Positions 22,058 to 46,385 are shown, counted from the first letter of the stretch. The stretch is DNA of 64,000 nucleotides from Ignavibacteriaceae bacterium (GCA_023231105.1 JALNWB010000001.1:18276-82275), one strand, 5' to 3'. The notes: generated from the letters alone by a model not told the origin. Numbers and translations are program-made.

Positions 22058-25000
22058 ATGTTTTTATATAAGTTACCGGATTATGAAGGGGGATTTGTTA
22101 CTAAATCTATTGAGTGCAATTGCATAGTAACAAGAGATGCAAACGGGCACTTGCTGGACAGTAAACCGGTTAATTGTGTAAAGAAGGGAGTGAAAACAAA
22201 TTTTGGAAAGGTTGTGGATTATTCGAAGAATTTTGTAATTCTGAAAAAAGGGACTGAGCTTAAAAGGGTGAAAAGGGAAGTTCTGAATAATATTTTGTTA
22301 AAGAGTTTGGAACAACCCGAGATAACTTTAGAAAAGATAAAGGTATCGGGAAAATTTAATACACTTGCGGGGAAAGTGTTGGTAAAAAGTGAAAGTGAAA
22401 TTGTTAGGGATGTATTAACTGATCCCGATAAAGTTTTGAGTAAGGGGAAAAGTGTTATTTTTTCTAAGACGATAAATGGGAAAGAGGTTGAGGCTAAGGT
22501 TGAGAAAACCTCAATGTTTATGAATACGTTTTTACATAAAAGTATAACCGTAAAGGAAAGTGTTGCGGCGAAAAGAATTTTAATAAAGGGAATTGCAACA
22601 ACGCTTAGAGCGCCGAAGGTGTTTAATATTCAGTCGGCAGTCGGCAGTAGGCAATCGACAATGGGTGGAACTGCATGGAACGCGAAAGGGGGAATGAAAC
22701 CGAATCATAAGTACATTGAACGGAAACCGGCGAAAAGTGGAGACGGGTATATTTATCTGTATGAACTCCCTTCCGGTAAAAAGGAATGGAGAGATGAAGC
22801 GGGAAAAGCTGTTGAGGGGGGACAGACGAGCGCCGATTATCAGTTGGAAGATTTTAAGGTGGGCGACATTGTTAGGCAGGATAATAAACTCGGCCGGATA
22901 ATGGAAGCATCAACAAATATGCTTGCGGTAAATTTCGGCGGGGAAATGAAGGTGATCAACAAAAAAGAGCATGTTGAAAAGGTTAAGCAGCATCAACTAA
23001 TGAAGGAAGGGGCCACGATGCAGTATGAGGGGAACGATGCAAAGATATTGAGGATAACCGGCAAAGCGGCATTGATAAACACGGCTGATAATAAGCTAAA
23101 GGTGATCAATCTTGAAAAGCAGTTGGAGAAATACGAACCGAAGAAAGAGGAGAAACGGTTAAATAAATACAGTGATGTTTACCAGGGTGAAGCGGAGCGA
23201 AGGATAGGGAGCGGGGGAGCGGATAATTACAACATCAGTTATGAAGAGCAGCCTAAGTATAAAAATTTTGTTGACGCGGCGAAGAAAACGGGATTTGGGA
23301 GAAAGAACGATCTTGAAATGGTGAAGCGCGTTGAAACGGAAAACGGGCTTAGAACGGTAAGGTGGAACTATAACCCGGAGGATCAGAATATTAGTTTTAT
23401 GGTTGACGGGAAAGAAGATTATACTATGAATTTTATGGGGAAGAAGTATAAAATAAGGGATATTACGGAAGACGGTTACAGTTTGGAAGATGCAGAAACT
23501 AAGGAACGGGGATTGTTCCTTTCTCACAAAGATTATAATAATGATTTGAAACAACAAAGAGACGAGGAGAGAAAGAATGTTGTAGTTGAAAGAACGGGAG
23601 GGGTGAACGGATTTGAAACGGTTAAAGAACCGGCGCGAACTTTTAGGTTTAAACCGGAATACAGTGATGAAGAAAAAGAAAGGTTTGAGAAACGAGGGGG
23701 AAGAAGACCGAGCCGATGGACGCGAAGAAAAGATGAACCTTTGCAAAGCGAAGAGGAGAAGAAACGATTAACTGAATTGCAGGACGAGAGGGATAAAAAG
23801 AATAAGGAAGTTTTGGGAACGAAGGATTTTGCAGACTTTGAGAAGTTACACAAAGAGAGAGGCTTTACAATTGGTGCAAATAGATTCCATGCAGCAAAAG
23901 AAATTGAGGCAGGCGGAAGAACATTCAGAATAAAGAGTGAGTTTAAGCCGGAGAAAATGAGCTGGCAGACTTCCATCGATGGACCTGTTAAGAAATTGCA
24001 GTTGGGAGAAAAACATTTACCGATAACGGATATTTCAAAAGATAAAGTTTTCTACCACGAAGGGGGGGATGAAAAAAGTATAACCTTTGATGAGTTGAAA
24101 ACGATTAACGGCAAGAGTTTGTTTGAACCCACAAAAGAGAGTAAAGGAATTGTAAGTAATTTAGATCCGGTGAAGATATATTTTGACGATAAAGATGTAA
24201 CGAGCGGGACTTATGAAATTGTTGAAGCTAATGAAATAATTGCTTCCCACAAAACGGATGGAACGCCAAACAGAGATTACACGATATCAGACGCGCAAAA
24301 TAGAGACCGCAGCACTCCGCAAAGTATTGCACAAATAAACAAGATCGCAGCGAATCCGAATTTTGACTTTTTAAGCGACAGTAAGACCGCGCAGGACGGC
24401 GCACCCATTGTTGATGAAGATTATAACGTAATTGCCGGGAACGGGCGGGGAATAGGCGTACAGCTTCATTACAGCAACAAAGGGGAGAAGTATCGAAATG
24501 ATCTGTTGAAAAAGGTTGAGAAGTACGGTTTTAGTCGAGACGATGTTGAGAAGATGAAACAGCCTATTTTGGTAAGGCGAACGAATGTTGACGCAAAAGA
24601 GGCGCAACGATTGGGAGCAATTAGCAATACCTCACAGATGCTTGCAACAGAGGAACGGGAAGCGGCAAAAGGAAAGGCAACAAGAATTGATGACGCTACA
24701 ATAAATAATTTAGCCGATATGTTCACAAAAGGGAACCATGAATCACTTAATCAATATTTGGATGAGATTGGACCGGATGTGGTAGGTGAGTTACTGAAGA
24801 AGAAAATTATCCCGGAGAATGAAGCGCACTTGTATATTGACCCGAAGAGCGGGAAAATGGATGCAGGGCACAAAGAAAAGGTTAAGCAAATATTAACGCA
24901 ATCGGTTTTGGGAGAGAGCAGTAAGCATTTTGAGAAGATACCGGAAGCGGCGAGAGCGGGAACGGTTAAAAGTCTTGGAGATATTTTTGCGCTGAAGGGG

Positions 25001-27154
25001 AAAGCGGGTGATCTTGTTCCTCACTTACAGGAAGCGATAAAGGTTTTAGCAAAGTATGAAGCGGTTAAGAATAACTTTAAATCGCCGGATGATTTTGTTA
25101 AGCAGGCGGCAAATGACGCATTTGAACCGTTGAAAGGAAGTAAAGAAGGATTGGCTTTATTTGATCTATTAGCAGACCCGATAAGAGAAGTAACGAAGGA
25201 AAACGGAAAGAAGGAAAAGAAAAACGTAATAAGTGATTTTATCCGTAAATATAAGTTAAGTTTAGAAGGGGATATGTTTGGCGAAGGCAAACCGGCGAAG
25301 GAAGCGTTTGATGAAGTGTTCAAGCCGAGGTACGAGAAGGGAGTGAATAAGAGTTTGTTTAGCAGATTGCGTATATTTGGTAAAAAAGTTTTTATGAAAT
25401 CTGTTGATACGACAAAGAATATTTTAGCGCCGAGTAAAAAGAATCCGGGTGTAAAACGTTGGCAAAAGGTTGAGAGCGGAAAGTTGAAAGTTGCAAGTGG
25501 AAAGGTTGAGGATAAAACACAAGTGACAAGTGACAAAAAGCAAGGGGAAGAAAAGATACGACTAAAAGATGTAACAAAATGGCATGAATACACAAAAGGA
25601 AGAATGATTGAAACAATTAGAAAAAATGCCGTAGAAGGATTAAATAAAGAAATAGATAAACATCAAGCAGAAATCAAATCATATGTATATGTTCCCGATC
25701 CTTATGATTTTCGTGATACAGAGAACCCAATAGAAATTAGTTTCTCGGGAAAAGAAAAAACAGGACAACCTATAATTATCAGGAATGGATTTGAATATAA
25801 ATTTGCATATCAGAGCAATAAATACGATAGATATGATAGATCACTCACAGATAAAGAGATGCAAGAAAAAACAGACAAGAAGAAAAAAGACATCCAATGG
25901 TTGATTGATTATAATAAAAAGAAAATTGACGATATTAATAATGGTTTGATAGATAATAAATTGTTTGACGAAGAGCAGAAAAGAATTGCAAAAGAAAAAG
26001 ACGACCGAGAAATTGAAATCGCAAATAAATTCTATCCAAGTAAAAGTCTTTCCCGATCTTTAAGGGATATAACAGGAAAGAAACTAGGTTTGTCTTTGCA
26101 CGACTTTCATGATGCAAAGGGTAATTCGGCGTATATAATAACTGATAAATTTAAAATACGATTTTCTGATCATGAGAGTAGAACTGAACAGGATTTCTAT
26201 AGATTGGATGAAAAGGATAAACCTTTTCGTCCAGTTGAATATGAACCAGAGGACATTGACATAATAATTTACAAAGACCGGAGAGGGGACGCTGTTGTTA
26301 CAATCGATGGGAATAACTATGGAATTGCGGATTATAATATTGATTCAATTGAAGATTTAAGCGAGTTCATACTTGAAAAGATAAATAAAAAAGTCGTTGA
26401 TTCCGTAGAACCAACGACTACAAATGAAAGCAAACCACAATCGCTTAAGACAGAGCCGAACGCTAAAAGCGGAGCGGATGACTTAGGCAGTGATAAACGT
26501 GCCGAAGCACAGACGAAAAGTAGTGAAGAGAAAGGAGAAAAGCAAATACCGCAAACGGAGACGGAGAATTTTAAGAAGTGGTTTGGGGAGAGTAAGGTAG
26601 TGGATAGTGAGGGGAAGCCGTTGGTGGTTTATCATGGCAGCAAAACACAGTTTGAGGTATTTGATAAAGTAAATGGCGAATCATCATCTTCCGGTAGATT
26701 TGAAGGGTTTCACTTTGGGACATTAGACCAAGCCAAAATGCGGAACGGTAAAATGGTTATGGCTCTGTTTCTAAAAGCTGAAAAATTACAACGGAGTAAA
26801 GATGAAGGAGGTAGGTGGTGGAAGAAAATTCAATCTGCAAAAAGTAGAAATTATGATGGCATAATTTATTTGAACAGATATGAAGGCATCCCTCTTGAAG
26901 AATATGATGAAGCAGAAAAACGAGGAGTTAAAACAGATGCCGATTCGCTTGATCGAATGAGTGATGAGCAATTTAGAAAAAATTTCCCATCAGCAAAAGA
27001 TAGCTATATCGTTTTTTCTCCAACTCAGATTAAATCCGCTATTGATAATGACGGAAGTTTTGATCCGGAGAATGCGGATATTACCAAGGGGACGAAAATA
27101 ACGAGGCGGATAATATTTAAGAAAAAGAAGAAGGATGAAACTTTTTTATTGTAG
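22058..27154 (+). CDS. polyvalent protein 1 (1698 aa): ParB/Srx-like domain plus C-terminal ART-PolyVal-like ADP-ribosyltransferase domain
   Basis: An HKYIERKPAKSGDGYIYLYE motif is present. A ParB-like block is present (YEIVEANEIIASH...QNRDR...INKIAANPNFDFL...GAPIVDEDYNVIAGNGRG). The C-terminus FKKWFGESKVVDSEGKPLVVYHGS...YIVFSPTQIKSAIDNDGSFDPENADI matches the ART-in-polyvalent-proteins signature as I recall it. Confidence 0.85.
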   Translation: MFLYKLPDYEGGFVTKSIECNCIVTRDANGHLLDSKPVNCVKKGVKTNFGKVVDYSKNFVILKKGTELKRVKREVLNNILLKSLEQPEITLEKIKVSGKFNTLAGKVLVKSESEIVRDVLTDPDKVLSKGKSVIFSKTINGKEVEAKVEKTSMFMNTFLHKSITVKESVAAKRILIKGIATTLRAPKVFNIQSAVGSRQSTMGGTAWNAKGGMKPNHKYIERKPAKSGDGYIYLYELPSGKKEWRDEAGKAVEGGQTSADYQLEDFKVGDIVRQDNKLGRIMEASTNMLAVNFGGEMKVINKKEHVEKVKQHQLMKEGATMQYEGNDAKILRITGKAALINTADNKLKVINLEKQLEKYEPKKEEKRLNKYSDVYQGEAERRIGSGGADNYNISYEEQPKYKNFVDAAKKTGFGRKNDLEMVKRVETENGLRTVRWNYNPEDQNISFMVDGKEDYTMNFMGKKYKIRDITEDGYSLEDAETKERGLFLSHKDYNNDLKQQRDEERKNVVVERTGGVNGFETVKEPARTFRFKPEYSDEEKERFEKRGGRRPSRWTRRKDEPLQSEEEKKRLTELQDERDKKNKEVLGTKDFADFEKLHKERGFTIGANRFHAAKEIEAGGRTFRIKSEFKPEKMSWQTSIDGPVKKLQLGEKHLPITDISKDKVFYHEGGDEKSITFDELKTINGKSLFEPTKESKGIVSNLDPVKIYFDDKDVTSGTYEIVEANEIIASHKTDGTPNRDYTISDAQNRDRSTPQSIAQINKIAANPNFDFLSDSKTAQDGAPIVDEDYNVIAGNGRGIGVQLHYSNKGEKYRNDLLKKVEKYGFSRDDVEKMKQPILVRRTNVDAKEAQRLGAISNTSQMLATEEREAAKGKATRIDDATINNLADMFTKGNHESLNQYLDEIGPDVVGELLKKKIIPENEAHLYIDPKSGKMDAGHKEKVKQILTQSVLGESSKHFEKIPEAARAGTVKSLGDIFALKGKAGDLVPHLQEAIKVLAKYEAVKNNFKSPDDFVKQAANDAFEPLKGSKEGLALFDLLADPIREVTKENGKKEKKNVISDFIRKYKLSLEGDMFGEGKPAKEAFDEVFKPRYEKGVNKSLFSRLRIFGKKVFMKSVDTTKNILAPSKKNPGVKRWQKVESGKLKVASGKVEDKTQVTSDKKQGEEKIRLKDVTKWHEYTKGRMIETIRKNAVEGLNKEIDKHQAEIKSYVYVPDPYDFRDTENPIEISFSGKEKTGQPIIIRNGFEYKFAYQSNKYDRYDRSLTDKEMQEKTDKKKKDIQWLIDYNKKKIDDINNGLIDNKLFDEEQKRIAKEKDDREIEIANKFYPSKSLSRSLRDITGKKLGLSLHDFHDAKGNSAYIITDKFKIRFSDHESRTEQDFYRLDEKDKPFRPVEYEPEDIDIIIYKDRRGDAVVTIDGNNYGIADYNIDSIEDLSEFILEKINKKVVDSVEPTTTNESKPQSLKTEPNAKSGADDLGSDKRAEAQTKSSEEKGEKQIPQTETENFKKWFGESKVVDSEGKPLVVYHGSKTQFEVFDKVNGESSSSGRFEGFHFGTLDQAKMRNGKMVMALFLKAEKLQRSKDEGGRWWKKIQSAKSRNYDGIIYLNRYEGIPLEEYDEAEKRGVKTDADSLDRMSDEQFRKNFPSAKDSYIVFSPTQIKSAIDNDGSFDPENADITKGTKITRRIIFKKKKKDETFLL
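22631..22665 (+). repeat. tandem heptamer array, CAGTCGG type (5 units), inside polyvalent protein 1
   Basis: The units are CAGTCGG CAGTCGG CAGTAGG CAATCGA CAATGGG. They encode QSAVGSRQSTMG. Confidence 0.9.
25470..25539 (+). repeat. tandem heptamer arrays, TTGAAAG type (6 units) then ACAAGTG type (3 units), inside polyvalent protein 1
   Basis: The first array is TTGAGAG CGGAAAG TTGAAAG TTGCAAG TGGAAAG GTTGAGG. The second, at 25519-25539, is ACAAGTG ACAAGTG ACAAAAA. Together they encode ESGKLKVASGKVEDKTQVTSDKK. Confidence 0.8.
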
Positions 27155-27172
27155 GTGAAAAAAAGATTATTT

Positions 27173-27205: not shown

Positions 27206-27240
27206 CAACAAACAACAATAACTCTAAAGGAGAAAAGACC

Positions 27241-27705
27241 ATGTTACAATTCCCATTACTCACCGATGCCCAGGTTGCGGCAAAGGATTTTATGAATCAA
27301 GGAGATACTTTAAAAGCGTTAGACCTTTTGCAGAATCTTCCTTACGTAAACGTTTCCGCCGCATTAGCTGCGGGTGCAACGGGCGTAACTACAAATGAGC
27401 ACATCTTTGTAGCGCCGTGCAAATTGGAAATTTTGGAAGCGAAGTTCATCACTACTGTAATTAACACCGGTACAAGCAACGAACCGGAAGTAAAATTGCT
27501 TGCGGGCACCGACATTGTTGGTGTTAGCGGTGCAATTATCTTAGCAGGCGCAGCAGTTGGTGATGTTGCAACGTTAACGCTTGATGCAACAAAAGTTGTT
27601 GTAGCGGCAGGGACAAAACTTATTCTTAGAATAGTTAATCCTACTGCAACAATTACTACTCCGTTAACCGGAAAGCTTCAGTTCATCTGGAAACCAACTG
27701 TTTAG
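27241..27705 (+). CDS. hypothetical Ala/Thr/Val-rich beta protein (candidate capsid decoration or other abundant virion protein)
   Basis: It has a strong SD (AAAGGAGAAAAGACC ATG), its own upstream AAGTTAACA-N17-ATTAACA motif, and its own 11-bp-stem terminator. The function was not recognised. Confidence 0.5.
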   Translation: MLQFPLLTDAQVAAKDFMNQGDTLKALDLLQNLPYVNVSAALAAGATGVTTNEHIFVAPCKLEILEAKFITTVINTGTSNEPEVKLLAGTDIVGVSGAIILAGAAVGDVATLTLDATKVVVAAGTKLILRIVNPTATITTPLTGKLQFIWKPTV

Positions 27706-27722
27706 TTCATTAGTACGGTTGT

Positions 27723-28556: not shown

Positions 28557-31500
28557 TGAAATTATTTGGAATGACAATAGCAAAGAGTAAAGATAAACCG
28601 AAATTGCTTAAAGCATTCGGGGTAATATTAAAAGCCTTCGGTACGCAGTTAGGAATGTTTAATGATGAAGTGATTGAAGGGCAGACGAAGCAGAAAGACG
28701 GGCACAGCTATGTAGTTAAGAGAAGTAACAAGAATCCTCTTGTAAAAAGATTATTCAGGGCGGATAAGGAGGAGAGTAAGCCGAAGGAACTGAGTTTGTT
28801 TGATAAGAAAGTTACAGTAGGCAGTCGGCAATCGGCAGTCGGCAATCGGGCAGAAAGTAAACCACCGAAAGCGGAACCAATAAGACACACAGAGCAACCG
28901 GAAGCAAAGGACGATCTCTTCAATCAACCAAAGGAAGAGAGAAAAGAGCCGAAGGCAGAAATTAAAGTTGTTAAGGGGAAGAAAAACCGTAAAGAGATTA
29001 ACGCTAAGGTTGAGGAGTTATTAAAGACAAAGAAAAATGATGAGATGAGCGCTGAGGATGTTGAATTATTAGCGCAGTACACCGGACGCGGCGGATTGTT
29101 AGGAGATACGCTTGAGGATATCTCGCTTAATGAATTTTACACACGTAAGGATGAAGCGGAATTTATTTGGGATATGATAGGGAAGTTAGGTTTTAAGGGA
29201 GGAAATGTTTTAGAGCCTTCGATGGGAACGGGAATTTTTGTTGAGACAGCACCGGAGAAAGCGCTTGTAACCGGAATTGAGATTGAGGAGACGAGTGGAA
29301 GAATCGGACAGATTTTACACGGCAATGAACACGATATCAGAATTCAGAGTTTTGAACAGTTTGTAAAAGACTATGATAATATGGGAGCGGATTTAGAAGG
29401 GGGAGAATATGACGCGATAGTTGGGAATTGTCCGTTTGGTAAAAGGGGATTGAGCGCAATGGATGATAGGGAAAAGAGCGATATAAAATTCCATGAGCAA
29501 TATTTTATTGATCGAGGTTTGGATATGTTGAAGCCGGGGGGGATAATGGCAATGATCGTTCCAACAAGTATAATGGATAACCAACTTAATCAATGGCGGG
29601 GAGAGGTAAACAAAAAAGGGGAATTTTTAGGAGCAATACGAGTACCAACCGGAGCATTCAAACACACAGACGCGCAAGTAACCACAGATATAGTTTTCTT
29701 TAAGAAAAGACCGCCGGAAGTAATTGATCACTTGAACAAACTTTCCAAGGAAGAACTTGGGGAAGCTTATGACGATATGGTAATGGATGCTGATTTTGTT
29801 TCGGGGAATTTCTTTAAGAATAATCCGGAGTATGCATTGGGCACGGAAACAAGCGGAATGTTCGGAATGAAGATTTGGAAGGGAGATATTACAAAGGCTG
29901 ATCTTGAAAAAGTCGGTGAGTTATTAAACCATGAGGCAAGAGATTACAGCAGTTTAGGAATTGATGTTAGTAAATATGGTGAGTTAGAAAAAGAACTTGA
30001 ACCGGGAGATGTAAAGATATTAAACGGAAGAACTTACATACTTAATAAAAACCATAGATGGGAAAGATTGAAAGATCAGGAAGTAGTATTACAAAACTTA
30101 CCGGAAGACATTAAAAAACTTGGTATTACGAGTTGGGATGAATGGAGAATTAAGAGTGAGGACACAGCTTATTTATACGGTTTGGATAAGGACCAACTTA
30201 AACTTTTCGGACAAACAAGAATAGTTAATGAGCTGGATGGATACAACGGCAAGAATGATTTTCAGACGGAATATTTAACAAAGGGAGTTGTGTTAGGTTT
30301 AGCAGTAAAGGATTTCAGAAAAGAGTTGCAAGACGGAAGATTATCCGCTGAAGAGGCGCAAATGGAAGCGGGGAAACTGAAGATATTGCTAAAGGATTTT
30401 ATTGAAAAGTATGGACACCCGATTGAGAATTTAAAGTTAAATAAATTTTTTAAGAACAGCGGAAACGCGCCACTTCTTAATTTGGCAGGTAGCTATGATA
30501 AGAACGGCAACACTATCAAGATGTTTGATGATCCGCTGTCTTTTTATAAAGTTTATCAAACGAAGAGCGAAATAGGAACAGTTGATAGGAATAATATTGT
30601 TTCGGTAATCGGTTTTCTTTTTGCAAATAATTTTCCAACGGATTATCAAACGGTACGAGGCGAGTATGAGGGGGATGGAGATATTGAAAGAGAGCTTGCA
30701 TATAGCGATGAAATTTATTTTGATGAAGAAGGAAATTATAAACCGAAAGAGGAAGTCCTTTACGGTTACATTTACGAAAAAATTGACGCTTGGGAAAAGC
30801 AACGAACCGAACTGAAGAAGGAATCCAAGAACGAAAAGTTAAGCGATAAAGAAAAAGAACTTAACGCGCAAAAAATGCGAAAGCTCGAAGATCAGATAAT
30901 TGAGGCGAAGACGAGAGCGAATATCAGGGAGATTAAGCAGCTACCAATAATGTTAAGCGATGCAGGGAGTATTTACGATATTGGTATTTTAAACAAATAT
31001 TTGGAAGAAAAGATAGGGGCGCATTTCTTAGGTGAATTACGCAAAGATGAAAAGAGTGGTTTCATTCTTCCGGTTGATGAGAGTTCGGCAAAATTATATT
31101 TAAGTTATGCAGATATTACGAAAGAGGGGAAATCAACAGATGTAAAACGGGAATTGCGGGATCTCTTTAATAAAGATGAGCATCCGTTGTTATTTATGAT
31201 TTTAAATAAGATGAATGGATTAGGTTTACCGGCATTACGGACAGAGGAAGGGATTGCTAAGAAAGAACAAGTCTTACAACTTGAAACAGATTTTAAGCAG
31301 TATTTATCCGATAGTGAAGAAGCTGATAAAATTGCAGATACTTATAACAGGTTGTTTAATTCTTACATACAAAAAACGTATGATGAAAAACCGATAGAGG
31401 GAATAAAGCATTTTGCTTATGATAGAGTAGTTGGAAAAGACGCAAGCGGAAAAGATATAACCGGAAAAGATAAGGCGGGCGGGCATACTTGGGCAACGGT

Positions 31501-34500
31501 ACGCAGAATGTATGAACAGGGTAAGGGGATGATTGCTCACGGAGTTGGATTAGGGAAAACTTTGGAGGCATTAACTTTAACTTTATTAAGTAAAGAAACC
31601 GGAAGAGCAAATAAGCCTTGTATTGTTTCTCCGAAATCAGTTTTATTAAATTGGGTTGCAGAAATTGAGAAGTGGACACATGGAGTAAATTATTTATTAG
31701 TCGGTTATTCCAAAAAAAATGAAAGCGAAGGATGGACGGAAGAAAATACGATAGAAGATAGCCGCGAAGTAAAAGAATTGAAGTTGCAACGTGCGGCGAA
31801 CGAAGATTTTGACATGATTTTGATGAGTAGGGATTTATTCGGTACAATTGACTTTTCGCCGGAAACGAAAAAGAATATGCTTAATGAATTGATGGATAAG
31901 TATTACCCGGAGGGGAACCGGTTATCAACATTCTCTGATGGAGATAGTAAGTACGCGAAGAATGTGAAAAAGAAAAGAGATACGTTGTTAAGAAATCTTT
32001 CCGAAATGATGGACATACCGGAACCATTGGGAGGAGTTTATCTTGACAACATAGGAATAGATATGTTGGTAAGGGATGAAGCGCACGACACGAAGAACTT
32101 ATTAGTACCGATGGAAAGTGAAATTAGCGGAGTGAACAGCAGTACATCCCAACGAGCGATGCACAATTTATTTGCAAGCAAGATCATACGCGGACAAAAT
32201 AATGATATGGGATATTTTGGGTTGACGGCAACACCGATAAGTAATTCACCGTTAGAAGTTTTTAATATGATGGTGCCGTTTGCAGAGAAGGAACTTGAAA
32301 AATTACAAGTCCAAAATATGGATGACTTTGTTAGCAGGTTTGCCGACATTGATAATATCCCAACCACAAGTGCAGACGGAAGAGTTATAGTAAAGAATAA
32401 ATTCTCGGGCTGGAAGTCGGCCGAGGCATTAAGAAACACTTTCTTTAGATTTGTTGATTATAAGACAAAAGATGATGTTGAAAGCGTAAAGGCAAATATA
32501 AAATTCCCAAAAGAGAAAGCGGCAAATGTGCTGAGTGATTTGAATGAAGGGCAAAAAGAAATAGTGAAGCATTGCAAGTTAAGGTTATGGATGTTAAGCA
32601 GCCGTGTATTTGATAAGGATAATAAGACATGGGATTTTAATGCTGACAAGTTACAAGAAAAAGTAGGTGAGGGATTAATTAGCCAGGACGAAGCAACGGA
32701 AGTTTTGAATTATTTTAATGATGAATATTTACCTAAATATGAAGCATTGAATGCGAGGCTTGGTCCGGACGATACACCGAATGACGATCACTTTTTTAAA
32801 GTGCAGCAGGATCTAATTAAAGCAACGAGTGATCTGCCCTGGTATAAAGATAAGCACAGCGAATATTCAAAAGAAGTTGATGATGATTTGGTTAAACAAC
32901 ATAGCGATTTAAAGAAGTTCGCGCAGTTGAATGAGAGCGCATTATCAATACATAAGAGCGGGGGGAAGCAAATTATCTTTGCCATCAACACGGCATTGCA
33001 CGAAAAGATCAAAAATGATTTAGTGAAATCGGGAATACCGGAAAATGAAATAGTAATTGTAAACGGGAAAACGGTGAGCAGCTCGAGTAAAAGATTGCAG
33101 ATAAGCAAAGCTTACAATGATGGGAAATATAAGGTAGTAATAGGCAATTACGCAACTATGGGAGAGGGATTAAATTTTAACTATATGACAAGCGATATTC
33201 ACCATTTGCAACCGGCTTGGAACCATTTACAGATAGAACAGGGGAACGGAAGAGGGATACGGCAAGGGAATCCATTAGACAGTGTAAATACGCATTACTA
33301 TTTAACGAAGGGGAGTATTGACGGATTTATGAATACCAAGATTATGGATAAGGCGGGAATGGTTGATAAGTTCTTAAAGGGTGAAACGAGCCGTTGGGAT
33401 GACGAGGTTCAGCTAGAGGCGGATGAAATGATGATTGAGTTAGCCGATAATCCGGAACAAGCAAAGGCATTATTAGCTTTCAGAAATAAAAAATTACAAG
33501 ATGCACTTGCAGAGCAGCAACGGCAATCTAACTATAAACAGTTGGATAGATTGTATGAAGTGAAAAGAAAAAAATCGGGAATGGCAGAAAAAACTTCTAA
33601 ACAATATCAGATGATGGAACAGGAAGAAAGAAGTTTAACGGAAAAACTTATTGAAGCTAATTTTGAGCATAAAGGAAAACTTGATTATGATAGAACACCG
33701 GTAATACTACCAGGGATAAATAAAGTAATCCCGGTAGGTGGTATTTTAGAGGGGAAAAGCGGAGAGTTTTATGTTGTTGAAGATTATGCGCCATCGACCC
33801 AAAGAGTGAAGATAAGAACGTATAAAGCCGGAACGCAGGGTGATATGGTGGGAACCCGTGCGATAAGTGCAAAAGAACTAGACAAAGAATTTAACGCATT
33901 ACATAAAGAAACCGACTTAGATTTGGGAGGGATGTTCAAAAAAATTATTGATGATAATGAAGAAGTTGGAATTAATTTTATTAGCAAAATCCCAAAGGAA
34001 ATTTTGCAAATAAATAAAGTTAAACTGCTTGAGAAACTTAACAATACCGATGAAGTATTATATCAGACCATGGACGGTGATTTCAAAGTTGCAGATTACG
34101 AAAGCGCAAAGGATGAAATTGCAACCGAAGGAGGGAAGATAATTTTTCCGCAAGAGAAACCGGAATTCCCGAAAATATTAAATGAATTGATAAAACTGCA
34201 TAAACCAAAGCAAAATTGGGGAGAGGGTTATTATCAATTTAGAAAATATAAGAATTTTGCAACTTCTATTTATGGTGAGAACTATGAGAACGCAATTAAG
34301 AAAGAGATCAAACGGTTAAACGGTGAAGCAACTGAAACAAGTTTTGCCATCCATACAACCGGCGCGAAATATAAAAAGACATTGAAGGATTTAGCCGATA
34401 ATGGATATATGAATGATTACACTTATAAAAGGATAATGCAAGGTAAAGCTTATGATGAATTATCAGAATTTAGTAACGCGCTTAGGGCGGAGTTTTTTGA

Positions 34501-35500: not shown

Positions 35501-35983
35501 ATGGAAGTGTGTGACGTAGACGAGGAAGTGTTAGAAAAGTTAATAAAAGAATTTACTGATGAATTTGGTGAAGAAGTGCTTAAGGAGGTTTACCGATTTC
35601 ACCGGAAATTAGCTAATAAAATGTATGTGAAGAATTTTCCGGCAGCGGAAATTTATCATAGACTTTTGATTAAAGATATCCGCAATGGTAAGTATGCAAA
35701 TATGAGTGTACGTGCAATTGCGGCGATTGAAAAGGTTAGTGAAGGTACGATCTATAACATTATCGGGAAAGCGTGTAGAGTTAAGAAACCGATTTATCAA
35801 TACTCGGTTAGGGGTAAATTAATAAAGAAATGGAACAGCGGAACGGAAATAGAAAAAGAATTGGGCTATAATGCAAGTCCAATACGGGCAAGCTGTAGAG
35901 AGGGGAACGATAGAGCGACTTATGGTTTTGTTTGGAGATACCAGGAGCTAACGGGAGAAGAACTTTTGGCAATTAGGAATTAG
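35501..35983 (+). CDS. DNA-binding protein: HTH plus NUMOD1-like module, no nuclease domain (candidate transcription regulator)
   Basis: MSVRAIAAIEKVSEGTIYNIIGKA is an HTH resembling sigma region 4 or resolvase. PIYQYSVRGKLIKKWNSGTEIEKELGYNASPIRASCREGNDRATYGFVWRY matches the NUMOD1-type DNA-binding module of homing endonucleases. Confidence 0.5.
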   Translation: MEVCDVDEEVLEKLIKEFTDEFGEEVLKEVYRFHRKLANKMYVKNFPAAEIYHRLLIKDIRNGKYANMSVRAIAAIEKVSEGTIYNIIGKACRVKKPIYQYSVRGKLIKKWNSGTEIEKELGYNASPIRASCREGNDRATYGFVWRYQELTGEELLAIRN

Positions 35984-36375: not shown

Positions 36376-36382
36376 TTTTTGG

Positions 36383-36420
36383 AACCTCCGGAGTGAAAGC
36401 TTCGGGGGTTTTTAGTTTTT
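36383..36420 (+). terminator. intrinsic terminator
   Basis: The stem AACCTCCGGAG/CTTCGGGGGTT (two G-U pairs) is followed by TTTTAGTTTTT. Confidence 0.7.
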
Positions 36421-38019: not shown

Positions 38020-39453
38020 ATGGACGATTTAATGTTTGGCGAACTTGCCGTAAACGGATCAGCTTATGGCGGCGCATCAACAGTAAAAGAACTCCAGGAC
38101 TTAGCCAAAGCTCTTGAGGTTGGTTATGCGATGGGGACAACGGACCAAACCGGATTTGGAGCCACAAGACTTGAAAGCCTTGACCCGGTTGTAAAATGGC
38201 TTACCCTAAACGAATCTTCCCCGGCATTCTTTAGAGCAATACGAAAAGGGAAGGCTTCCAGCACGGTTGAAGAATTTGTAACCATGAATGAGGTAGGAGA
38301 TGCTAATTTTTATTCTGAAGGCGGATTACCGGACGAATATGATGAAGATATCCGAAGAGAATTTGAGCAGGTAAAATACATCGGAACCGTAGGTAAAATT
38401 CCTTTGCAGGCTTTAATGGTAAAAAGCAATACCAATAACGAAGCGCTTGTTACAAGAGCCAAAGCACTTGCGATAATGAAAACCGCAGATAGCAAAATAA
38501 TCTATGGTGATGCTGCTCGTAATCCTTACGAATGGAATGGTTATTACAAACAATTTAAAACAAAAGCAAAGAATGTAAGCCAAAACACAATTGATTTGCG
38601 CGGTAAACGTGTTAGACCGGAAACCTTAAATGAATCGGTACAAATTATTGCCGATAACTGGGGAAACGCAAATAACGTAAAATGCTGGATGAGCGCCAAA
38701 GATTTTCAATTTTATACCGATGAATTGTTAGCCGGTAGAAGATTTGTGGTAGGAAGTTCTGAAGCCCGTGATCTTATCGCTTCCGCGAAAAGATTTGAAC
38801 TTGGGAACGGAAAAGGAAATATTGAAACCGATATTCTTTTGAAATACAAGGGTCAAAATTATATAGGCGCAGAGTATCCTAAAACAAACACCGCGATGAC
38901 AGTATTTGCAGCAACAAACAGCAAAGCACCAGCCACCCTTAACTCAAGCACTGCAACTATTTCAGTTGATACTGATGCAGCTACCTTGCTTGACGCAGCA
39001 ACTTACGATTACGCATTTGTACCGGTTAATAAATACGGTGCGGGCGCAGCATTTGAAGTTAAAACAAACGTTGTTGCAGCTTCTAAACGCTGTACTTTTA
39101 CCTTAACTGATAACGGTTCACCTTCAGGACAAGAAGCAACAAGTTTTGATATTTACCGTAAACTTTCATCCGCAACTGCAATTACAAGTTATAGATATTT
39201 AACTTCGTTTACAGCAGCCGAAGCAAAGATCGATAACGGTGAATGGATACCGGGAGCGACTAATATTTTCTTATGGGATTGGGACTTTGAACAAGTACTC
39301 GATTTCCGTCAATTACTGCCAATGACTAAGATGGGATTGGCTCAAATTGATGATTCCAAGAGATGGATGCAAAAATTATGGGCAGTGCCGATTCTTGTAG
39401 CACCAAACAAAATGGTGATGATAAAGAACGCGGGTTCTACTGCTTGGGCTTAA
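38020..39453 (+). CDS. major capsid protein
   Basis: This 477-aa protein lies directly after the protease-scaffold gene, and GGAG lies upstream of its ATG. A large hairpin follows it. Its N-terminal segment shares a 26-aa motif with the protease-scaffold protein. Confidence 0.7.
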   Translation: MDDLMFGELAVNGSAYGGASTVKELQDLAKALEVGYAMGTTDQTGFGATRLESLDPVVKWLTLNESSPAFFRAIRKGKASSTVEEFVTMNEVGDANFYSEGGLPDEYDEDIRREFEQVKYIGTVGKIPLQALMVKSNTNNEALVTRAKALAIMKTADSKIIYGDAARNPYEWNGYYKQFKTKAKNVSQNTIDLRGKRVRPETLNESVQIIADNWGNANNVKCWMSAKDFQFYTDELLAGRRFVVGSSEARDLIASAKRFELGNGKGNIETDILLKYKGQNYIGAEYPKTNTAMTVFAATNSKAPATLNSSTATISVDTDAATLLDAATYDYAFVPVNKYGAGAAFEVKTNVVAASKRCTFTLTDNGSPSGQEATSFDIYRKLSSATAITSYRYLTSFTAAEAKIDNGEWIPGATNIFLWDWDFEQVLDFRQLLPMTKMGLAQIDDSKRWMQKLWAVPILVAPNKMVMIKNAGSTAWA

Positions 39454-41417: not shown

Positions 41418-41443
41418 TTAGGAATTAGGAATTAGGAATAAAC
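41416..41443 (+). repeat. tandem heptamer array, AATTAGG type (3 perfect units plus 1 degenerate)
   Basis: The units are AATTAGG AATTAGG AATTAGG AATAAAC. The array starts inside the TAA stop of the gene at 40341. Confidence 0.9.
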
Positions 41444-41575
41444 TTGGAACAATATTTTGAAGCCGTTAGAAAATTGCCGGTTGGGGATTGGAAAGTAATT
41501 GCGGAGTTCCATAGGATAATTATGAATTATAAAAAGATGAAGCGGTTAGCTGATAAGCATAAAATAAAATGTTAA
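41444..41575 (+). CDS. possible small ORF (43 aa, TTG start)
   Basis: An open frame begins directly after four AATTAGG-type heptamers and overlaps the next start. It is weakly supported. Confidence 0.2.
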   Translation: MEQYFEAVRKLPVGDWKVIAEFHRIIMNYKKMKRLADKHKIKC

Positions 41576-42360
41576 AAATTATTGATGAAAATATTGTACG
41601 GAGTCTAAGACGGTTCGGGCAAACGGTAAAGCATTACCCGGGCACGTTGTGCAGTTGCATTGGTGAAAATAACGGTGTGCCGTTATTAAACCATACTTGC
41701 AACCAGGGTTATTATTACGGAGCGCCGGAAACAATTATTGCAATACGCACGGCGATATCTTACAAATACCTAAACACGCCGCAAGGGGTAATTTATGACG
41801 GAGGCGCAACATTTACCATCCCAAGATTGAATTTAAGCGGAGCCGAACAGAGAGCTTATTCTGTTATTACGCACGGAGATATTTTGGTTTGTGATAATAA
41901 GACCAGACGTGACACAGATATACTGAAGCGTGGAACCCGTGATTTTATTTACGCTTTTGATATTACCGAAGTAATTGGCATATACCGTAACAACACAAAA
42001 TATGATGCAACGGATTACACAATTATTGAGGATGATTATAAAACGTTACTTGGTGATGACGGTTTACCGCTTACCGATGAGAACGGAGTACCAACGGGAG
42101 AAGTAAGAGACAAAGCGGATATTGTGGGTAAATTAATGGCGGTTGTTTGGGCAACCGGCAAAGGACCGGCAACGGGTGAAAGTTACACGGTGGAATTCAT
42201 TTGTGCTCAACAGTTTAAAGTATGGGAAGATGCGGGAAGTGATAGGGGAACGGATGAAAACAGACTACCGAAAAAGATGCTTACCGTATTAAGAAGATTT
42301 GTTACACCGGTGGAAAATAACCTTGACACCGTAGAAACGACACAGGAGTTGTACACATGA
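41569..42360 (+). CDS. virion structural protein (by position)
   Basis: An ATG ORF coupled by ATGA to polyvalent protein 3. Confidence 0.45.
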   Translation: MLKIIDENIVRSLRRFGQTVKHYPGTLCSCIGENNGVPLLNHTCNQGYYYGAPETIIAIRTAISYKYLNTPQGVIYDGGATFTIPRLNLSGAEQRAYSVITHGDILVCDNKTRRDTDILKRGTRDFIYAFDITEVIGIYRNNTKYDATDYTIIEDDYKTLLGDDGLPLTDENGVPTGEVRDKADIVGKLMAVVWATGKGPATGESYTVEFICAQQFKVWEDAGSDRGTDENRLPKKMLTVLRRFVTPVENNLDTVETTQELYT

Positions 42361-45300
42361 TAATTACATTATTTGGAAAGTCAATAAAATTTGGGAAGAA
42401 CCCGAACCAGATAGATATGTTTGCAACCGCCGGAGCGGAAAAGGAATTTGCGCCAGGGGATAAACGCAGACTTGAACTTACAAGCGGCGGGAAGTTGCGT
42501 TGGAAGAATGCGGATGAGGAAGGGAGTGGAAAGTTGAAGGTTGAAAGTGGAAAGAATGCAACTCCGAACAATCAAAACATTAGAGAGGAAAAAGGTTTAT
42601 TCAAAGAAGCGTATGAACAAACGCAAGATGAATATGCGCAAAAGATGTTCAGAGGACCAATAGCTGAAGTTAAAAAATTTAAAGACCCGAATGATTTGGA
42701 AGATATTGCAATCTCTAACGAACAGCACAAAGTTATTATTAAACACGCTATTCGAGAAGGTAAAGAGATCCCGGATGCAGTAATTGAACCTTACAAAAAT
42801 TCGCATTGGGCGAAGGAATATTTGAGTAAAAAAGTTGATTACTCACAAGAGCTTATAAACACCGCGCAAACAAGTAAGACTTTCGATAAGTTTTTAACAA
42901 ATGTTAGAATCCATGTATTCCCAAACGAGTTTCTTAAAAAAGAGTTGGGGTTAGGAGATGACAACGTACAAAATAGAAAAAAACTTAATGACTATTACAA
43001 CAGGCAAAAAGCAGAGCATAGAGAACAACGTAAAAAAGATAAAGAAGAAGGGGATAAGGCAATTGCCGAATTGCATGTAGATCAAATAGAAAAATTAGCA
43101 CTTCAACAGTATGGCGGGAAAGTGGGGAAAGAAAAAAAGATTGATGATGATAAAATTGCAGAGTTGTATAGGAATAGCCCGATATCTATTCAAGTGGATA
43201 AGATGAGCAATAAAGCGCAAGAAATTTATAATAACGCCGGGAACCAGGCAGAAAAACAAATTGCATTTGATCTTTGGAATTATGGGAATGGGATACAGGA
43301 TGAGTTTGTAGAAAAGTACGTTAAAGGGGAAAAGATAAGTACTGAAGATGTTATGGAAGTAAAGAGAATTGCAAACATATTGATAAAAGGCGCTGATGAA
43401 GAATTTGAGAAAGTAAAAAATGGGAGTAAGGCAAAAATTACGATCAAGAAAAAGAAAGAAGAGCCGGTTAAAAAAGAACCTTGGGAGAGAACTTTATCGG
43501 ATATGATACAAAATGAAATTACAAACCGTGAAATTTTTGGACCGGAAAGTTATCCTAAATGGATAACGGATAATACTAAAGTGGAAATTGCAGACCGAAG
43601 AACCGGAATTGTTTATGATCATTTTACTCTTGCAAGCCCAACACAGGAAAGATTAAAACATTATGGGAAACTTGCACATTATGAAATTATAAAGCGAGCC
43701 TTAGTTGACGGCAAGCCCGTACCGCCGGAAGTGTTGAGGGATTATCCGGAGTTGGAAAAGGAAACTTCACTTATAAGTGAATTACCTTTTACTGCATCAT
43801 TAAAAAAAGATTTAGAAAGTTACGGCGAAAAGACAAAAAATATTTTAGTTGAAGGGACGTATCAACCATTTGCTGATTGGTTTAAGAAACAATACCCGGA
43901 TCAAGAATTTAAAATCGGTAAACATCAAGATGGAGGACCATTTATCGCTATAACTGGAGGAGGAGAAATTAGATATTCAGCTTATCAGAAAGATAATTCT
44001 GAAAACGAAATAAAATTATCAAAGTTAAAAAAACGGAAAGAAGTTCTTGGGGAAAAACTTTACTCCGAGAAACTTAAAAATCACAAGAAAGTATCTAATA
44101 TTGGTTTTGGCACAAATATGAGGGGATATCAAAAAACGAAACAATTAAGTTTTAGAAGAGAAGATGAATTGCAACAAAAAATAAAAGAGATTAACGAAGA
44201 AATAAAAGATTTATTACCAAAGAATGTTAGTGAATCAAATAAAAGCATCTTCAAAAATTTATTTAAAGCCTTTGGGAAACAAATATCAATGTTTGGAGCG
44301 CAGCCATATCAAAAGGAAGGGCAGACGAAAGAGGGACGCGGAGGCACGTTGAAATTAACGAGGGACAGCTCGGGAAAGGGAGCGCATTGGAAGTTAGTCG
44401 GCAAAGGGCAATCGGCAGTGGACGGTCAGCAGTCGGCAGTTGGCAGTGGGCAAGAAAAACAAACTGGCGGAAAGATAATTACTCCGGCTAATGCTTTTGA
44501 ATTGTTGCAGGATAAAATTGGTAATAGTGTGTTACTGCAGGACAATGAAGGAAACTTGTTAGGTGAGGGAGCGTTACAGCTTGTGAACGAAAACAGTGAA
44601 GGCAATTATTCTTTGTTCTTAAAAGAGGCAAATGGATTTGATTCTCTCGTATCGATACCAAAGAACCAGGCAGTTGTACAGAAGGAAGACGGGATAAGTT
44701 TTAAGTTTGCAGATAAGAATATTTTAATATCAACAATTGAGAAAAGCAAAATTCCCAATAAGCCGGTTGAAATGGAAAAAGCCGAAGAGAACGCGAAACA
44801 TGCGCGTAACTTAGAGAAGATGCGGAATTTTAACGAATGGCAAAAGAAAGCCGACAGTTATGCAAGAACAGCGAACGGGCAAAAGGATTGGTTTTTTGGT
44901 GATATGGAAATTGCCGCCGACGCTGAAGGTTTAGAGTTTGGAGTGAAGAACCGCATCATTAAAAAAGCCGATACACTGTTTAAGGAAATAAAGAGGAACG
45001 CAACAAGGGATGATAAGGCTGAGATATACAGCGCACTAATCGGAGCATTTGAAGTGAAAAGCGTTGCTAAGGCAAAAGCTGTTATTTCCAACTTAAAGAA
45101 GAAGGGGTATGAAATAGACGCTGATCAGTTGGACCAACCGAAGGATAAAGAAAACTTTTTTACAAGGATAAAAATAAGCAAAGGGGAAAACGATCCTTTG
45201 CCGAAGGAGTTGCAGTTTGCAACCGGTGAATATGCCTTGGCATTTGAAGAGTGCGCGAAGAAACCAAATCCTTTAAGAGAAACAGAAATGAGTTTGGGCT

Positions 45301-46385
45301 TAAAGATCAATGCTGAAGGGGTGCCGGAGTTTAACACAATTAAGAAACAATTGTTTAACCTGGCCGGAGAAGGATTGGGACAATTATGGGTTACGGGTGG
45401 TTTACCGGGAAGCGGAAAGAGCAGCACACTTGGAGGTGAGTTTTATAAAAACAAAGTTTTGATAGATCCCGACAAAATAAAATATATGCTTGCTGAGGAA
45501 AGAGGAATATCGCAAGAAGAGGTAAATAAAAAGCCTTGGGAATTGCATGAGGAAAGTTCGAATATTGCCAAGCATTTGGTCCGTGAAGCAATACGCGAAA
45601 AGAAAGATGTAATTTATGATGTTACCATGAAGGGGACGGAAAATTTAAACGATCTTCTTTACATGGTGAACAGCGATACTTTTCAGGCGAATGCTGAGTT
45701 TATTCATCTCCCGATTGAAAAGGGAATTGAGCGCGACAAAGCAAGAGGAGAAAGCGGCGGAAGAAGCATAGGCGCTGATCTGTATAAGAAATTGTTTGGT
45801 GGTTATCCTACACACAAAGCTTTTTTTGAGTTGAAGGATAGTTTTGATAATTTTAGAGTATATGATAACAGCGCACCGTTGGGAGAAGGGGCAAAACTAT
45901 TTTATGTAAAAAATGACGGACAAGAAAAAATATTGCACCCGGGAATTCACGATGAATTCAAGAAATTTGGTTTGAAGCAAATGGGGAAATCACTATATTT
46001 GAGATACCAAAGGAGAAAATTAGTGAAAGCAATCGAACCCACACCCAAAACAAACGAAACCCAATTACCGGAAAGCGAAAAGTTAAAACTTCTTTTAGGT
46101 TTTAAAGAGCAAGGGATAGACCGGGACATTGATCCGGAACAAGATTTCTTTGCTTTGGGAATGCTGAAGATGCACGGATTGATCGATGAGAATATGAATC
46201 TAACACCGGAAGGTGAGCAGAAATATCAATTTCAATTTGGCAGTAAGTTTAGCAACATGAACGGAGAAGAAAGCGATGTTGAACAGGTCGTGAATCCGAG
46301 AAAAAATATTGCTGAAGAAAATAAAGAGAAAAAACCAGCCATAAAAGCATTCGGGAAAGAATTCAATAAAAAGAAACCTGAGTAA
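42357..46385 (+). CDS. polyvalent protein 3 (1342 aa) with duplicated H..IIK.A...GK.(I/V)P..V(I/L) modules and C-terminal Zeta-toxin-like P-loop kinase domain
   Basis: The Walker A motif LWVTGGLPGSGKSSTLGGEFY, together with VLIDPDKIK, HEESSNIAKHLVREAIREKKDVIYDVTMKG and RVYDNS, resembles Zeta toxin/UNAG-kinase domains. Two copies of a polyvalent-associated module are present (HKVIIKHAIREGKEIPDAVIEPY and HYEIIKRALVDGKPVPPEVLRDYPEL). A second internal leader is present (FKAFGKQISMFGAQ...). Confidence 0.85.
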   Translation: MIITLFGKSIKFGKNPNQIDMFATAGAEKEFAPGDKRRLELTSGGKLRWKNADEEGSGKLKVESGKNATPNNQNIREEKGLFKEAYEQTQDEYAQKMFRGPIAEVKKFKDPNDLEDIAISNEQHKVIIKHAIREGKEIPDAVIEPYKNSHWAKEYLSKKVDYSQELINTAQTSKTFDKFLTNVRIHVFPNEFLKKELGLGDDNVQNRKKLNDYYNRQKAEHREQRKKDKEEGDKAIAELHVDQIEKLALQQYGGKVGKEKKIDDDKIAELYRNSPISIQVDKMSNKAQEIYNNAGNQAEKQIAFDLWNYGNGIQDEFVEKYVKGEKISTEDVMEVKRIANILIKGADEEFEKVKNGSKAKITIKKKKEEPVKKEPWERTLSDMIQNEITNREIFGPESYPKWITDNTKVEIADRRTGIVYDHFTLASPTQERLKHYGKLAHYEIIKRALVDGKPVPPEVLRDYPELEKETSLISELPFTASLKKDLESYGEKTKNILVEGTYQPFADWFKKQYPDQEFKIGKHQDGGPFIAITGGGEIRYSAYQKDNSENEIKLSKLKKRKEVLGEKLYSEKLKNHKKVSNIGFGTNMRGYQKTKQLSFRREDELQQKIKEINEEIKDLLPKNVSESNKSIFKNLFKAFGKQISMFGAQPYQKEGQTKEGRGGTLKLTRDSSGKGAHWKLVGKGQSAVDGQQSAVGSGQEKQTGGKIITPANAFELLQDKIGNSVLLQDNEGNLLGEGALQLVNENSEGNYSLFLKEANGFDSLVSIPKNQAVVQKEDGISFKFADKNILISTIEKSKIPNKPVEMEKAEENAKHARNLEKMRNFNEWQKKADSYARTANGQKDWFFGDMEIAADAEGLEFGVKNRIIKKADTLFKEIKRNATRDDKAEIYSALIGAFEVKSVAKAKAVISNLKKKGYEIDADQLDQPKDKENFFTRIKISKGENDPLPKELQFATGEYALAFEECAKKPNPLRETEMSLGLKINAEGVPEFNTIKKQLFNLAGEGLGQLWVTGGLPGSGKSSTLGGEFYKNKVLIDPDKIKYMLAEERGISQEEVNKKPWELHEESSNIAKHLVREAIREKKDVIYDVTMKGTENLNDLLYMVNSDTFQANAEFIHLPIEKGIERDKARGESGGRSIGADLYKKLFGGYPTHKAFFELKDSFDNFRVYDNSAPLGEGAKLFYVKNDGQEKILHPGIHDEFKKFGLKQMGKSLYLRYQRRKLVKAIEPTPKTNETQLPESEKLKLLLGFKEQGIDRDIDPEQDFFALGMLKMHGLIDENMNLTPEGEQKYQFQFGSKFSNMNGEESDVEQVVNPRKNIAEENKEKKPAIKAFGKEFNKKKPE
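42527..42554 (+). repeat. tandem heptamer array, TTGAAAG type (4 units), inside polyvalent protein 3
   Basis: The units are TGGAAAG TTGAAGG TTGAAAG TGGAAAG. They encode SGKLKVESGK. Confidence 0.8.
44395..44450 (+). repeat. tandem heptamer array, CAGTCGG type (8 units), inside polyvalent protein 3
   Basis: The units are TAGTCGG CAAAGGG CAATCGG CAGTGGA CGGTCAG CAGTCGG CAGTTGG CAGTGGG. They encode VGKGQSAVDGQQSAVGSG. Confidence 0.85.

Follow-up and report, generated by a model that had tools for sequence, protein, structure and literature searches.

Three giant polyvalent proteins, probably packaged anti-defence effectors, encoded among the head genes of an uncultivated phage lineage

Introduction

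A stretch of 64,000 nucleotides (nt) from an assembly labelled Ignavibacteriaceae bacterium (GCA_023231105.1, JALNWB010000001.1:18276-82275; hereafter the window, with all positions counted from its first letter) carries a set of phage head genes and, interspersed with them, three giant open reading frames (ORFs) of 1698, 2038 and 1342 amino acids (aa), here termed G1, G2 and G3. The locus raises the question of whether these ORFs are genuine genes, and what proteins of such size are doing amid the genes for portal, prohead protease and major capsid protein. An original prediction, made from the window alone, had read them as polyvalent multi-effector proteins that separate the head genes and form an unusually large, distributed payload, and had proposed comparing relatives to see whether they are variable cargo.

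Proteins of this kind are already known, since phage P1, the Bcep22-like phages and the class described by Iyer et al. in 2017 are precedents. The latter survey defined polyvalent proteins with all of the domains seen here, a late-gene context, mosaicism and peptidase-driven processing (PMC5512222). We report that G1, G2 and G3 are real genes which hold fixed positions throughout a clade of uncultivated phages, exchange internal cassettes and share a short element at their module boundaries. The account that we favour, and consider probable, is that they are genuine selected genes encoding polyvalent anti-defence proteins of the P1 Dar type in an uncultivated ~120-kb myovirus-like phage with a distantly SPO1-like capsid and, to judge from their homologs, that they would be packaged and co-injected.

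Results

The giant genes lie within late head operons

All three predicted ORFs are present on the + strand (Table 1) and together occupy 15,243 nt, or 23.8% of the window, close to the ~15 kb and the quarter of the window originally estimated. The window represents a phage region for structure and replication, coded on one strand, with ~38% G+C, a GC skew that is strongly positive, and ribosome-binding sites of the AGGAG type. The expectation that head genes should be near-contiguous was borne out by Bacillus phage Nachito (Herelleviridae), the closest annotated relative by capsid protein, in which portal, protease, a scaffold-like gene and capsid gene are held in ~4.7 kb, as against a portal-to-capsid span of 20.5 kb here. 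The view that all three giants separate the head genes applies to G1 and G2, which are placed between the MuF and protease genes, but not to G3, which lies 3' of the capsid gene, among unannotated ORFs of the neck region. When GenBank phages were searched at the nucleotide level, neither the capsid region nor the whole locus found a match.

Strong + strand hairpins were detected at 36381-36412, 47563-47590 and 53539-53572, and none of them brackets G1, G2 or G3. The start of G3 overlaps the preceding ORF by 4 nt, and G2 overlaps the ORF following it by 1 nt. As no strong hairpin brackets the giants and their spacing is tight or overlapping, they are embedded in late operons, inside the structural gene set as had been proposed, and are not morons; transcription of G1, G2 and G3 is shared with that of the portal, MuF, protease and capsid genes. 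Promoter-like and terminator-like sites occurred in the window at the frequency expected by chance.

P1 DdrB and DarB are homologs of G1 and G2, and G3 carries a zeta-like kinase

The domains named in the original prediction all scored above the Pfam gathering thresholds, and the polyvalent identity proposed for G1 and G2 was supported by homology to P1 DdrB (~30% identity) and P1 DarB (27%), respectively. G2 was assigned by PHROGs to 'DarB-like antirestriction' (phrog_10089, 7.7e-105), and BLASTP against P1 DarB returned three collinear segments covering the methylase and both helicase lobes (E 1e-43, 8e-30 and 4e-15; 27-29% identity), with the methylase region aligning to DarB 87-522 at 28.5% identity. 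Pfam placed Eco57I at residues 263-351 (1.5e-7) and SNF2-rel_dom at residues 983-1355 (2e-14). The methylase motifs EPSMGTG and NCPF and the helicase motifs GLGKT, DEAH and QGNGRGIRQG are intact; PADLOC matched the helicase to the DpdE, ZorD and DrmD helicases.

In G1, ddrB-ParB was found at residues 716-842 (Pfam, E 1e-26), and residues 718-905 align with P1 DdrB at ~30% identity (E 6e-20). A fold search extends this DdrB-like module to about residue 1095, with DdrB-like proteins of BFVD matched over ~450 columns (E 1.7e-16), and the NRDR and GN.R motifs in it are invariant. The C-terminal cassette contains an ADP-ribosyltransferase (ART) of the ART-PolyVal family, in which the family-conserved positions VYHGS...QIKSA are kept. 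The first ~700 residues form an array of small beta-rich domains that is 46-50% identical in distant orthologs and bears a weak Foldseek likeness to the tandem KOW arrays of Spt5; this likeness is only a weak lead, because the template-modelling (TM) scores of the fold search against the PDB were very low.

G3 contains a P-loop kinase matching Zeta_toxin at residues 1012-1172 (E 1.7e-11; 44.4 bits against a cut-off of 22.3), with an intact P-loop (GGLPGSGKS), and also matches the polynucleotide kinase family phrog_505 (1.9e-7). Two 'GK.VPPEVL.DYPEL'-type repeats in its variable half (residues 124-146 and 441-466) match the proteins P0046 and P0047 and recur in unrelated giant ART-PolyVal polyvalent proteins. 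No antitoxin-like neighbour of G3 was noticed, although no dedicated test for an epsilon or PezA partner was made. The label 'multi-effector' is therefore apt for G1 and G2, each of which has at least two effector-type domains in one polypeptide, and at most tentative for G3 of the window, in which a single recognizable catalytic domain was found; the G3 orthologs P0042-45 add RadC. This RadC/JAB domain (PF04002) stands in a phage context in P0042-P0045, though Iyer et al. list RadC as specific to conjugative elements.

The giants are fixed in position while internal cassettes are exchanged

Relatives were drawn from IMG/VR, metagenome and metagenome-assembled genome (MAG) sequences, and synteny was judged where the fetched DNA covers the genes concerned. 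The order portal, small ORF, MuF, G1, homolog of the 154-aa ORF (o154), variable slot and G2 start is kept down to 49% portal identity in IMG/VR sequences, whose fetched DNA ends at the G2 start, and the order G2, protease, capsid gene and G3 is kept in closer relatives (88-96% capsid identity). Portal, MuF, G1 and G2 also follow each other in L023 (45% MuF identity) and L024; in L021 the fetched DNA ends before G2. In one relative, identity to the window is 83-93% for the structural proteins and 80-89% for the conserved parts of the giants. The giants are thus positionally fixed core genes of the clade and not accessory cargo, contrary to the notion of whole genes as variable cargo: all three are positionally conserved and their internal cassettes alone vary.

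In G1, residues 1 to ~1113 are conserved (46-50% identity in distant orthologs) and the C-terminal cassette is exchanged: depending on the homolog (1057-2409 aa), it consists of HD_4 plus ART, an HExxH module, other sequence or nothing, and of the ART in the window. In G2 relatives, an InPase domain (PF18823, 1e-43 in L001; also in L023 and L024) is inserted after residue 12. In G3, conservation covers residues 1-65 and everything from residue 629 onwards, and residues 66-628 are replaced, in P0042-45 by RadC-containing sequence.

Inteins were observed in several homologs. The G2 ortholog L003:3-7229 contains a LAGLIDADG intein in methylase motif I (Pfam LAGLIDADG_3 and Hint), P0079 appears by eye to carry a second one after the helicase GLGK motif, and Hint and intein-splicing domains are present in two MuF homologs (P0033/P0034). 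Inteins in methylase motif I and in MuF homologs are as expected of functionally important genes.

Some relatives (L024, L025, L026 and P0009) lie on long contigs, of 346 kb and 1.25 Mb. In L025, the genes bordering those of the phage just beyond the site expected for MuF are TonB, ExbB, DUF4199 and SPOR genes, a junction that could represent a prophage or a chimeric assembly. The host is uncertain because the MAG labels are mixed (Bacteroidetes, Ignavibacteriales, Melioribacteraceae, Bacillota and Nitrososphaerota); they point weakly to Ignavibacteriota or Bacteroidota.

A short element is shared by the three giants

An element of ~50 aa occurs once per giant, precisely where conserved and variable parts adjoin; in G2 it stands immediately downstream of the point at which InPase is inserted in relatives. 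Its pattern comprises an amphipathic K-x-[IL]-F-K-A-F-G-K-Q helix, followed by EGQTK… and …SKKNP-x-V-[KR]-R-W. When a hidden Markov model (HMM) built from G3-site orthologs only was run against the 664 six-frame ORFs of the window, the N-terminus of G2 was the best non-self match (E 5e-4), and an HMM for the G2 element, made solely from relatives, returned G2, G3 (1.1e-4) and G1 (0.034) as the top three of the same ORFs, with all others above 0.6. Comparison of family profiles with hhalign gave a probability of 96.3% for G3 against G2 (P 1.9e-9) and of 89.8% for G1 against G2 (P 1.8e-6). Furthermore, an iterated profile trained on proteins from outside the window matched the three sites and nothing else in the window below E 1.9. 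HMMs from the G1 site alone failed to retrieve the other element sites, and no Pfam family matched the element at E up to 5.

Every G1 ortholog retains the element, and in larger homologs (for G1, P0053 and P0054) a duplicate copy stands between one module and the next; natural hybrids uniting the two halves also occur. The element is confined to this clade, as an exhaustive search of 1.84 billion protein representatives found it in only 20 clusters. The elements were rejected as DNA repeats or simple recombination sites, there being no nucleotide match above 14 nt. The N-terminus of G3 was rejected as a fourth site (hhalign probability 4-16%), and an N-terminal match to '[LIM]FG.[ST]I' was set aside as post hoc.

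At its C-terminus (46320-46385), G3 stops within a truncated copy of the element, …KKPAIKAFGKEFNKKKPE (stop), and the orthologs P0072 and P0043 run on as …IKAFGK…LLPSKKNPNVRRWQ plus an extra C-terminal module. The truncated copy, set against the longer orthologs, suggests that a cassette has been lost from the end of G3 in the phage of the window.

Head genes of the locus

MuF had been proposed to be a separate gene at 19597-20649, and this assignment gained indirect support. The ORF itself had no match in Pfam (E up to 5), PHROGs or NCBIfam; PF04233 (Phage_Mu_F) was matched by 16 of 30 homologs (best 4.6e-5), every other family being matched by at most three. The AlphaFold2 (AF2) model of the ORF has a predicted local distance difference test (pLDDT) score of 82, and its top Foldseek matches in BFVD are nearly all annotated as 'minor capsid / head morphogenesis' (probability 1.00, TM ~0.4-0.5). 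The motifs DxCxxC and HPxCRC, which we take to be hallmarks of MuF proteins, are invariant in the family. The gene begins 284 nt past the portal gene, from which a single 95-aa ORF separates it, and this arrangement is kept in all relatives. On the Pfam matches of the homologs, the predicted fold and the position, we regard the ORF as a divergent, free-standing MuF.

The L021 ortholog of the portal protein has a faint Phage_portal match. The capsid protein is ~27% identical to those of Herelleviridae and of Bacteroides DAC/SJC phages. A 32-aa segment is common to residues 171-202 of the protease ORF and residues 28-59 of the capsid protein (63% identity, E 1e-8), and may be a maturation-cleavage or recognition region.

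Neighbouring ORFs

The o154 ORF (27241-27705) immediately follows G1 both in the window and in closer relatives, and in all relatives examined it is downstream of G1. Searches of Pfam, PHROGs and NCBIfam gave no family for it; it may be a partner of the giants or their chaperone. The slot between G1 and G2 that holds the 210-aa methyltransferase in the window is variable, and in relatives contains other ORFs, including a methylase of 559-573 aa. A second free-standing N6_N4 DNA methyltransferase (12137-14041, 634 aa) matches the Pfam model in two stretches that flank a large insertion.

Downstream of G3, the window encodes a PG_binding/SLT protein and then a pair of ORFs of 573 and 182 aa that parallels the sheath and tube genes of Nachito by size and order only. 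Searches confirmed no identity for the putative sheath (51232-52953), the ORF at 46444-47493 or that at 41569-42360. Elsewhere, the ORFs at 3049-4806, 702-1685, 9605-11629 and 35501-35983 correspond, in that order, to a HerA/DUF87 plus Zot-like ATPase, a DUF5131 protein, a large-terminase-like ORF and a small NUMOD1 ORF. The terminase match is weak (phrog_17415, 4e-15, with a blank Pfam search), and the NUMOD1 motif of the small ORF, situated between G2 and the protease gene, is below threshold.

Table 1. Features of the head region, in order of position in the window.
Feature	Position	Strand	Basis
Portal protein, 599 aa	17514..19313	+	weak phrog_11117 2e-7; 49-88% identity in relatives
Predicted divergent MuF / SPP1 gp7-like minor head protein, 350 aa	19597..20649	+	homolog Pfam matches, fold, position
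G1, DdrB-like polyvalent protein with C-terminal ART cassette, 1698 aa	22058..27154	+	Pfam, BLASTP, relatives
G1 residues 1-~700, ~six small beta-rich domains, clade-specific array	22058..24157	+	AF2 pLDDT 70
G1 residues 716-~1095, DdrB-like module, ParB/Srx domain plus helical extension	24203..25342	+	Pfam, BFVD
Junction element, G1 residues 1090-1137	25325..25468	+	conserved core / variable C-terminal cassette; profile 2.4e-20
G1 residues 1516-1668, ART-PolyVal ADP-ribosyltransferase in swappable cassette	26603..27061	+	Pfam 6e-15
o154, 154-aa ORF, no assigned function	27241..27705	+	relatives' orthologs 45-91% identity
N6_N4 DNA methyltransferase, 210 aa	27792..28424	+	Pfam 3e-9; phrog_67 1e-32
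G2, DarB-like methylase-helicase, 2038 aa	28556..34672	+	Pfam, PHROGs, BLASTP
Junction element, G2 residues 22-68	28619..28759	+	relatives-only HMM 2.9e-29; profile 4e-14
G2 residues 190-646, N6-adenine methylase region	29123..30493	+	Eco57I; P1 DarB alignment
G2 residues 983-1704, SNF2-type helicase	31502..33667	+	Pfam; phrog_10089, phrog_62; PADLOC
Prohead protease / scaffold ORF, 458 aa	36575..37951	+	phrog_1028 6e-18
Major capsid protein, 477 aa, distantly SPO1-like	38020..39453	+	phrog_752 1.6e-65
G3, zeta-like kinase giant, 1342 aa	42357..46385	+	Pfam, relatives
G3 residues 66-628, variable half	42552..44240	+	replaced in L003 and P0042-45
Junction element, G3 residues 629-680	44241..44396	+	variable half / conserved kinase half; profile 6.9e-19
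G3 residues 1010-1172, Zeta_toxin / AAA_33 P-loop kinase	45384..45872	+	Pfam 1.7e-11 and 5e-8

Discussion

According to the account favoured here, the giants would be made late together with the head proteins and loaded into the prohead, with MuF, the N-terminal beta-domain array of G1 and the junction element as candidate loading determinants. Ejection along with the DNA would follow, and the proteins would act during the first minutes of infection, when G2 might shield the incoming DNA from restriction, as DarB does, and the ParB module and ART of G1 and the kinase of G3 might act on host nucleotides or macromolecules. The junction element would most plausibly be a common loading or processing signal.

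Several observations weigh against this account. The N-terminal targeting sequence of P1 DarB has no similarity to the N-terminus of G2; the junction element was not found in P1 DarB or DdrB, and the junction HMM and the targeting N-terminus of P1 DarB did not cross-match. When P1 Hdf, DarA and DdrA were searched against the 664 six-frame ORFs by BLASTP and phmmer, nothing was found below E 0.1, a result that distant structural analogs could escape. Neither G1, G2 nor G3 contains the 32-aa segment common to protease and capsid protein, the candidate maturation-cleavage region. G1 is DdrB-like in one module only, since the ParB module is present but HExxH is absent throughout: the C-terminal metallopeptidase of P1 DdrB, which carries HELGH at residue 872, is missing, and HExxH was found in none of the three giants. 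For large stretches of G1 and G3 no function could be assigned; searches of Pfam (E up to 5), PADLOC, NCBIfam and the sequences of the PDB gave nothing usable there. Finally, two free-standing methylases are also encoded, so that protection of the DNA need not hinge on an injected enzyme.

The presence of three methylases in this phage could also be explained if the giants were late cytoplasmic enzymes that are never packaged, with G2 and the two small methylases modifying progeny DNA before packaging, the ART and kinase reprogramming the host late in infection, and the position in the head operon providing late timing only. The failure to detect the loading partners DarA and Hdf among the window ORFs, and the lack of a recognizable protease-site motif common to the giants and the capsid protein, would also fit such enzymes. 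However, the homologs that have been tested experimentally, namely P1 DarB and DdrB and the DarB-like protein of JC1, are all virion components; ddrB-ParB, InPase and ART-PolyVal are typical of polyvalent proteins in a virion context; and the giants are tightly coupled to the portal, MuF and capsid genes across the clade. We therefore regard unpackaged enzymes as unlikely.

Packaged proteins might alternatively be mainly structural, acting as internal-head or ejection proteins (an inner scaffold, a head-size determinant or a conduit for DNA exit) in which the enzyme domains are secondary passengers. The ~700-residue beta array of G1, which shows no catalytic signature, is under strict conservation and in every case follows MuF, would suit such a role, and in P1 the proteins DarA and Hdf line the capsid interior and influence head morphogenesis (PMC12810830). 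This explanation nevertheless seems improbable to us, since the catalytic motifs are conserved, an intein targets the active-site motif of the methylase, and the cassettes that relatives exchange are enzymatic effectors. A conduit of the T7 or P22 type is, moreover, unnecessary for a phage with a contractile tail.

That the giants are selfish or host-directed toxin modules (zeta-type addiction, superinfection exclusion or prophage-encoded defence) hitch-hiking in the structural region is hardly credible, even though zeta toxins are the classic toxins of toxin-antitoxin pairs, the G2 helicase resembles defence helicases and some relatives on very long contigs are possibly prophages, because flanking promoter-terminator pairs and an antitoxin-like partner were not seen, the genes are fixed in position across the clade instead of being sporadic, and the best full-length matches are to anti-restriction DarB and not to defence proteins.

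If the giants are indeed packaged anti-defence proteins, the P1-type strategy of pre-loaded counter-defence would extend to an uncultivated lineage with a distantly SPO1-like capsid, where it would be laid out over three genes of fixed position whose cassettes can be exchanged. The boundary element would provide a concrete candidate for the recognition or processing of very large cargo in head assembly, and the set of cassettes (ART, InPase, RadC, HD_4, HExxH and kinase) a catalogue of candidate counter-defence activities. A bolder proposal, which we put forward only tentatively and hold to be rather doubtful, is that the element is a portable capsid-loading and/or cleavage tag at module boundaries, that the giants are polyproteins of separately acting effectors, and that the locus is a three-slot, plug-and-play delivery chassis. 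If this were true, any enzyme set beside the tag would be packaged and injected, which would give phages an equivalent of polymorphic-toxin architecture and might offer a means of engineering them for protein delivery.

Among the closest known systems is the Dar system of P1, which comprises DarB, DdrB, DarA, Hdf, DdrA and Ulx. DarB and DdrB have been identified as head proteins by liquid chromatography coupled with tandem mass spectrometry (LC-MS/MS), DarB is present in ~40 copies per virion, its first 30 residues suffice to target a reporter to the capsid, and comparison of the N-termini of the Dar proteins by BLAST revealed no common targeting signal (PMC9024508). The likeness to the locus studied here lies in the alignment of G2 with DarB and of G1 716-~1095 with the ParB module of DdrB, and in the flanking of portal and pro by dar genes: darB is beside the portal and pro genes, and ddrB-ddrA-darA-hdf is located a few kb beyond, on the other side, all of these being late genes. 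Loading of DarB in P1 requires DarA and Hdf. G1 differs from DdrB in its 700-aa N-terminal array of beta domains and in the ART that replaces the C-terminal metallopeptidase; a third giant, the kinase, and the junction element are found here only, the capsid belongs to an SPO1-like lineage, and the probable host phylum is another one. As P1 itself distributes darB, ddrB and darA over two operons flanking portal/pro, and podovirus JC1 devotes 22% of its genome to one DarB-like virion protein, the payload of the window cannot be called unusually large or distributed, as the original prediction had it.

Among the podoviruses related to Bcep22 (Bcep22 gp75, JC1 gp69), a methylase-helicase giant is likewise encoded in the morphogenesis module, takes up at least a fifth of the coding space and is seen in virions, the JC1 representative being a virion-associated, DarB-like protein of 4515 aa detected by mass spectrometry (PMC9144972). 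G2 matches this family (phrog_10089, 7.7e-105). In those phages it is a single protein of ~4500 aa, in contrast to three genes in a myovirus-like genome here, and G1 and G3 have no counterpart.

With the polyvalent class at large (PMC5512222), the giants share their size, their placement beside virion genes, their mosaicism and the domains ddrB-ParB, ART-PolyVal, InPase, SNF2, methylase, zeta-like kinase and RadC. Of the families that are characteristic of the class (ddrB-ParB, ART-PolyVal, InPase, LPDs and MPTase), ddrB-ParB and ART-PolyVal occur in G1 and InPase in G2 orthologs, and other polyvalent proteins share the 'GKPVPPEVL.DYPEL' repeats of G3. Unlike in that class, MuF is a separate gene and not fused, the copies in the window lack MPTase, the hub domain of the class, and a clade-specific junction element is present.

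In T4, the ART Alt and other internal proteins are made late, loaded into the prohead by means of a short targeting sequence, and enter the cell together with the injected DNA (PMC5512222, PMC9024508). In T4 this sequence lies at the N-terminus and is cut off by gp21, whereas the element described here is internal in G1 and G3, and the ART of G1 belongs to ART-PolyVal and not to Alt/VIP2; the logic of a packaged ART would be shared by analogy alone, and no sequence homology is claimed. What is added to these known systems is a clade-wide, three-slot modular architecture together with a previously undescribed boundary element shared by its three giant proteins.

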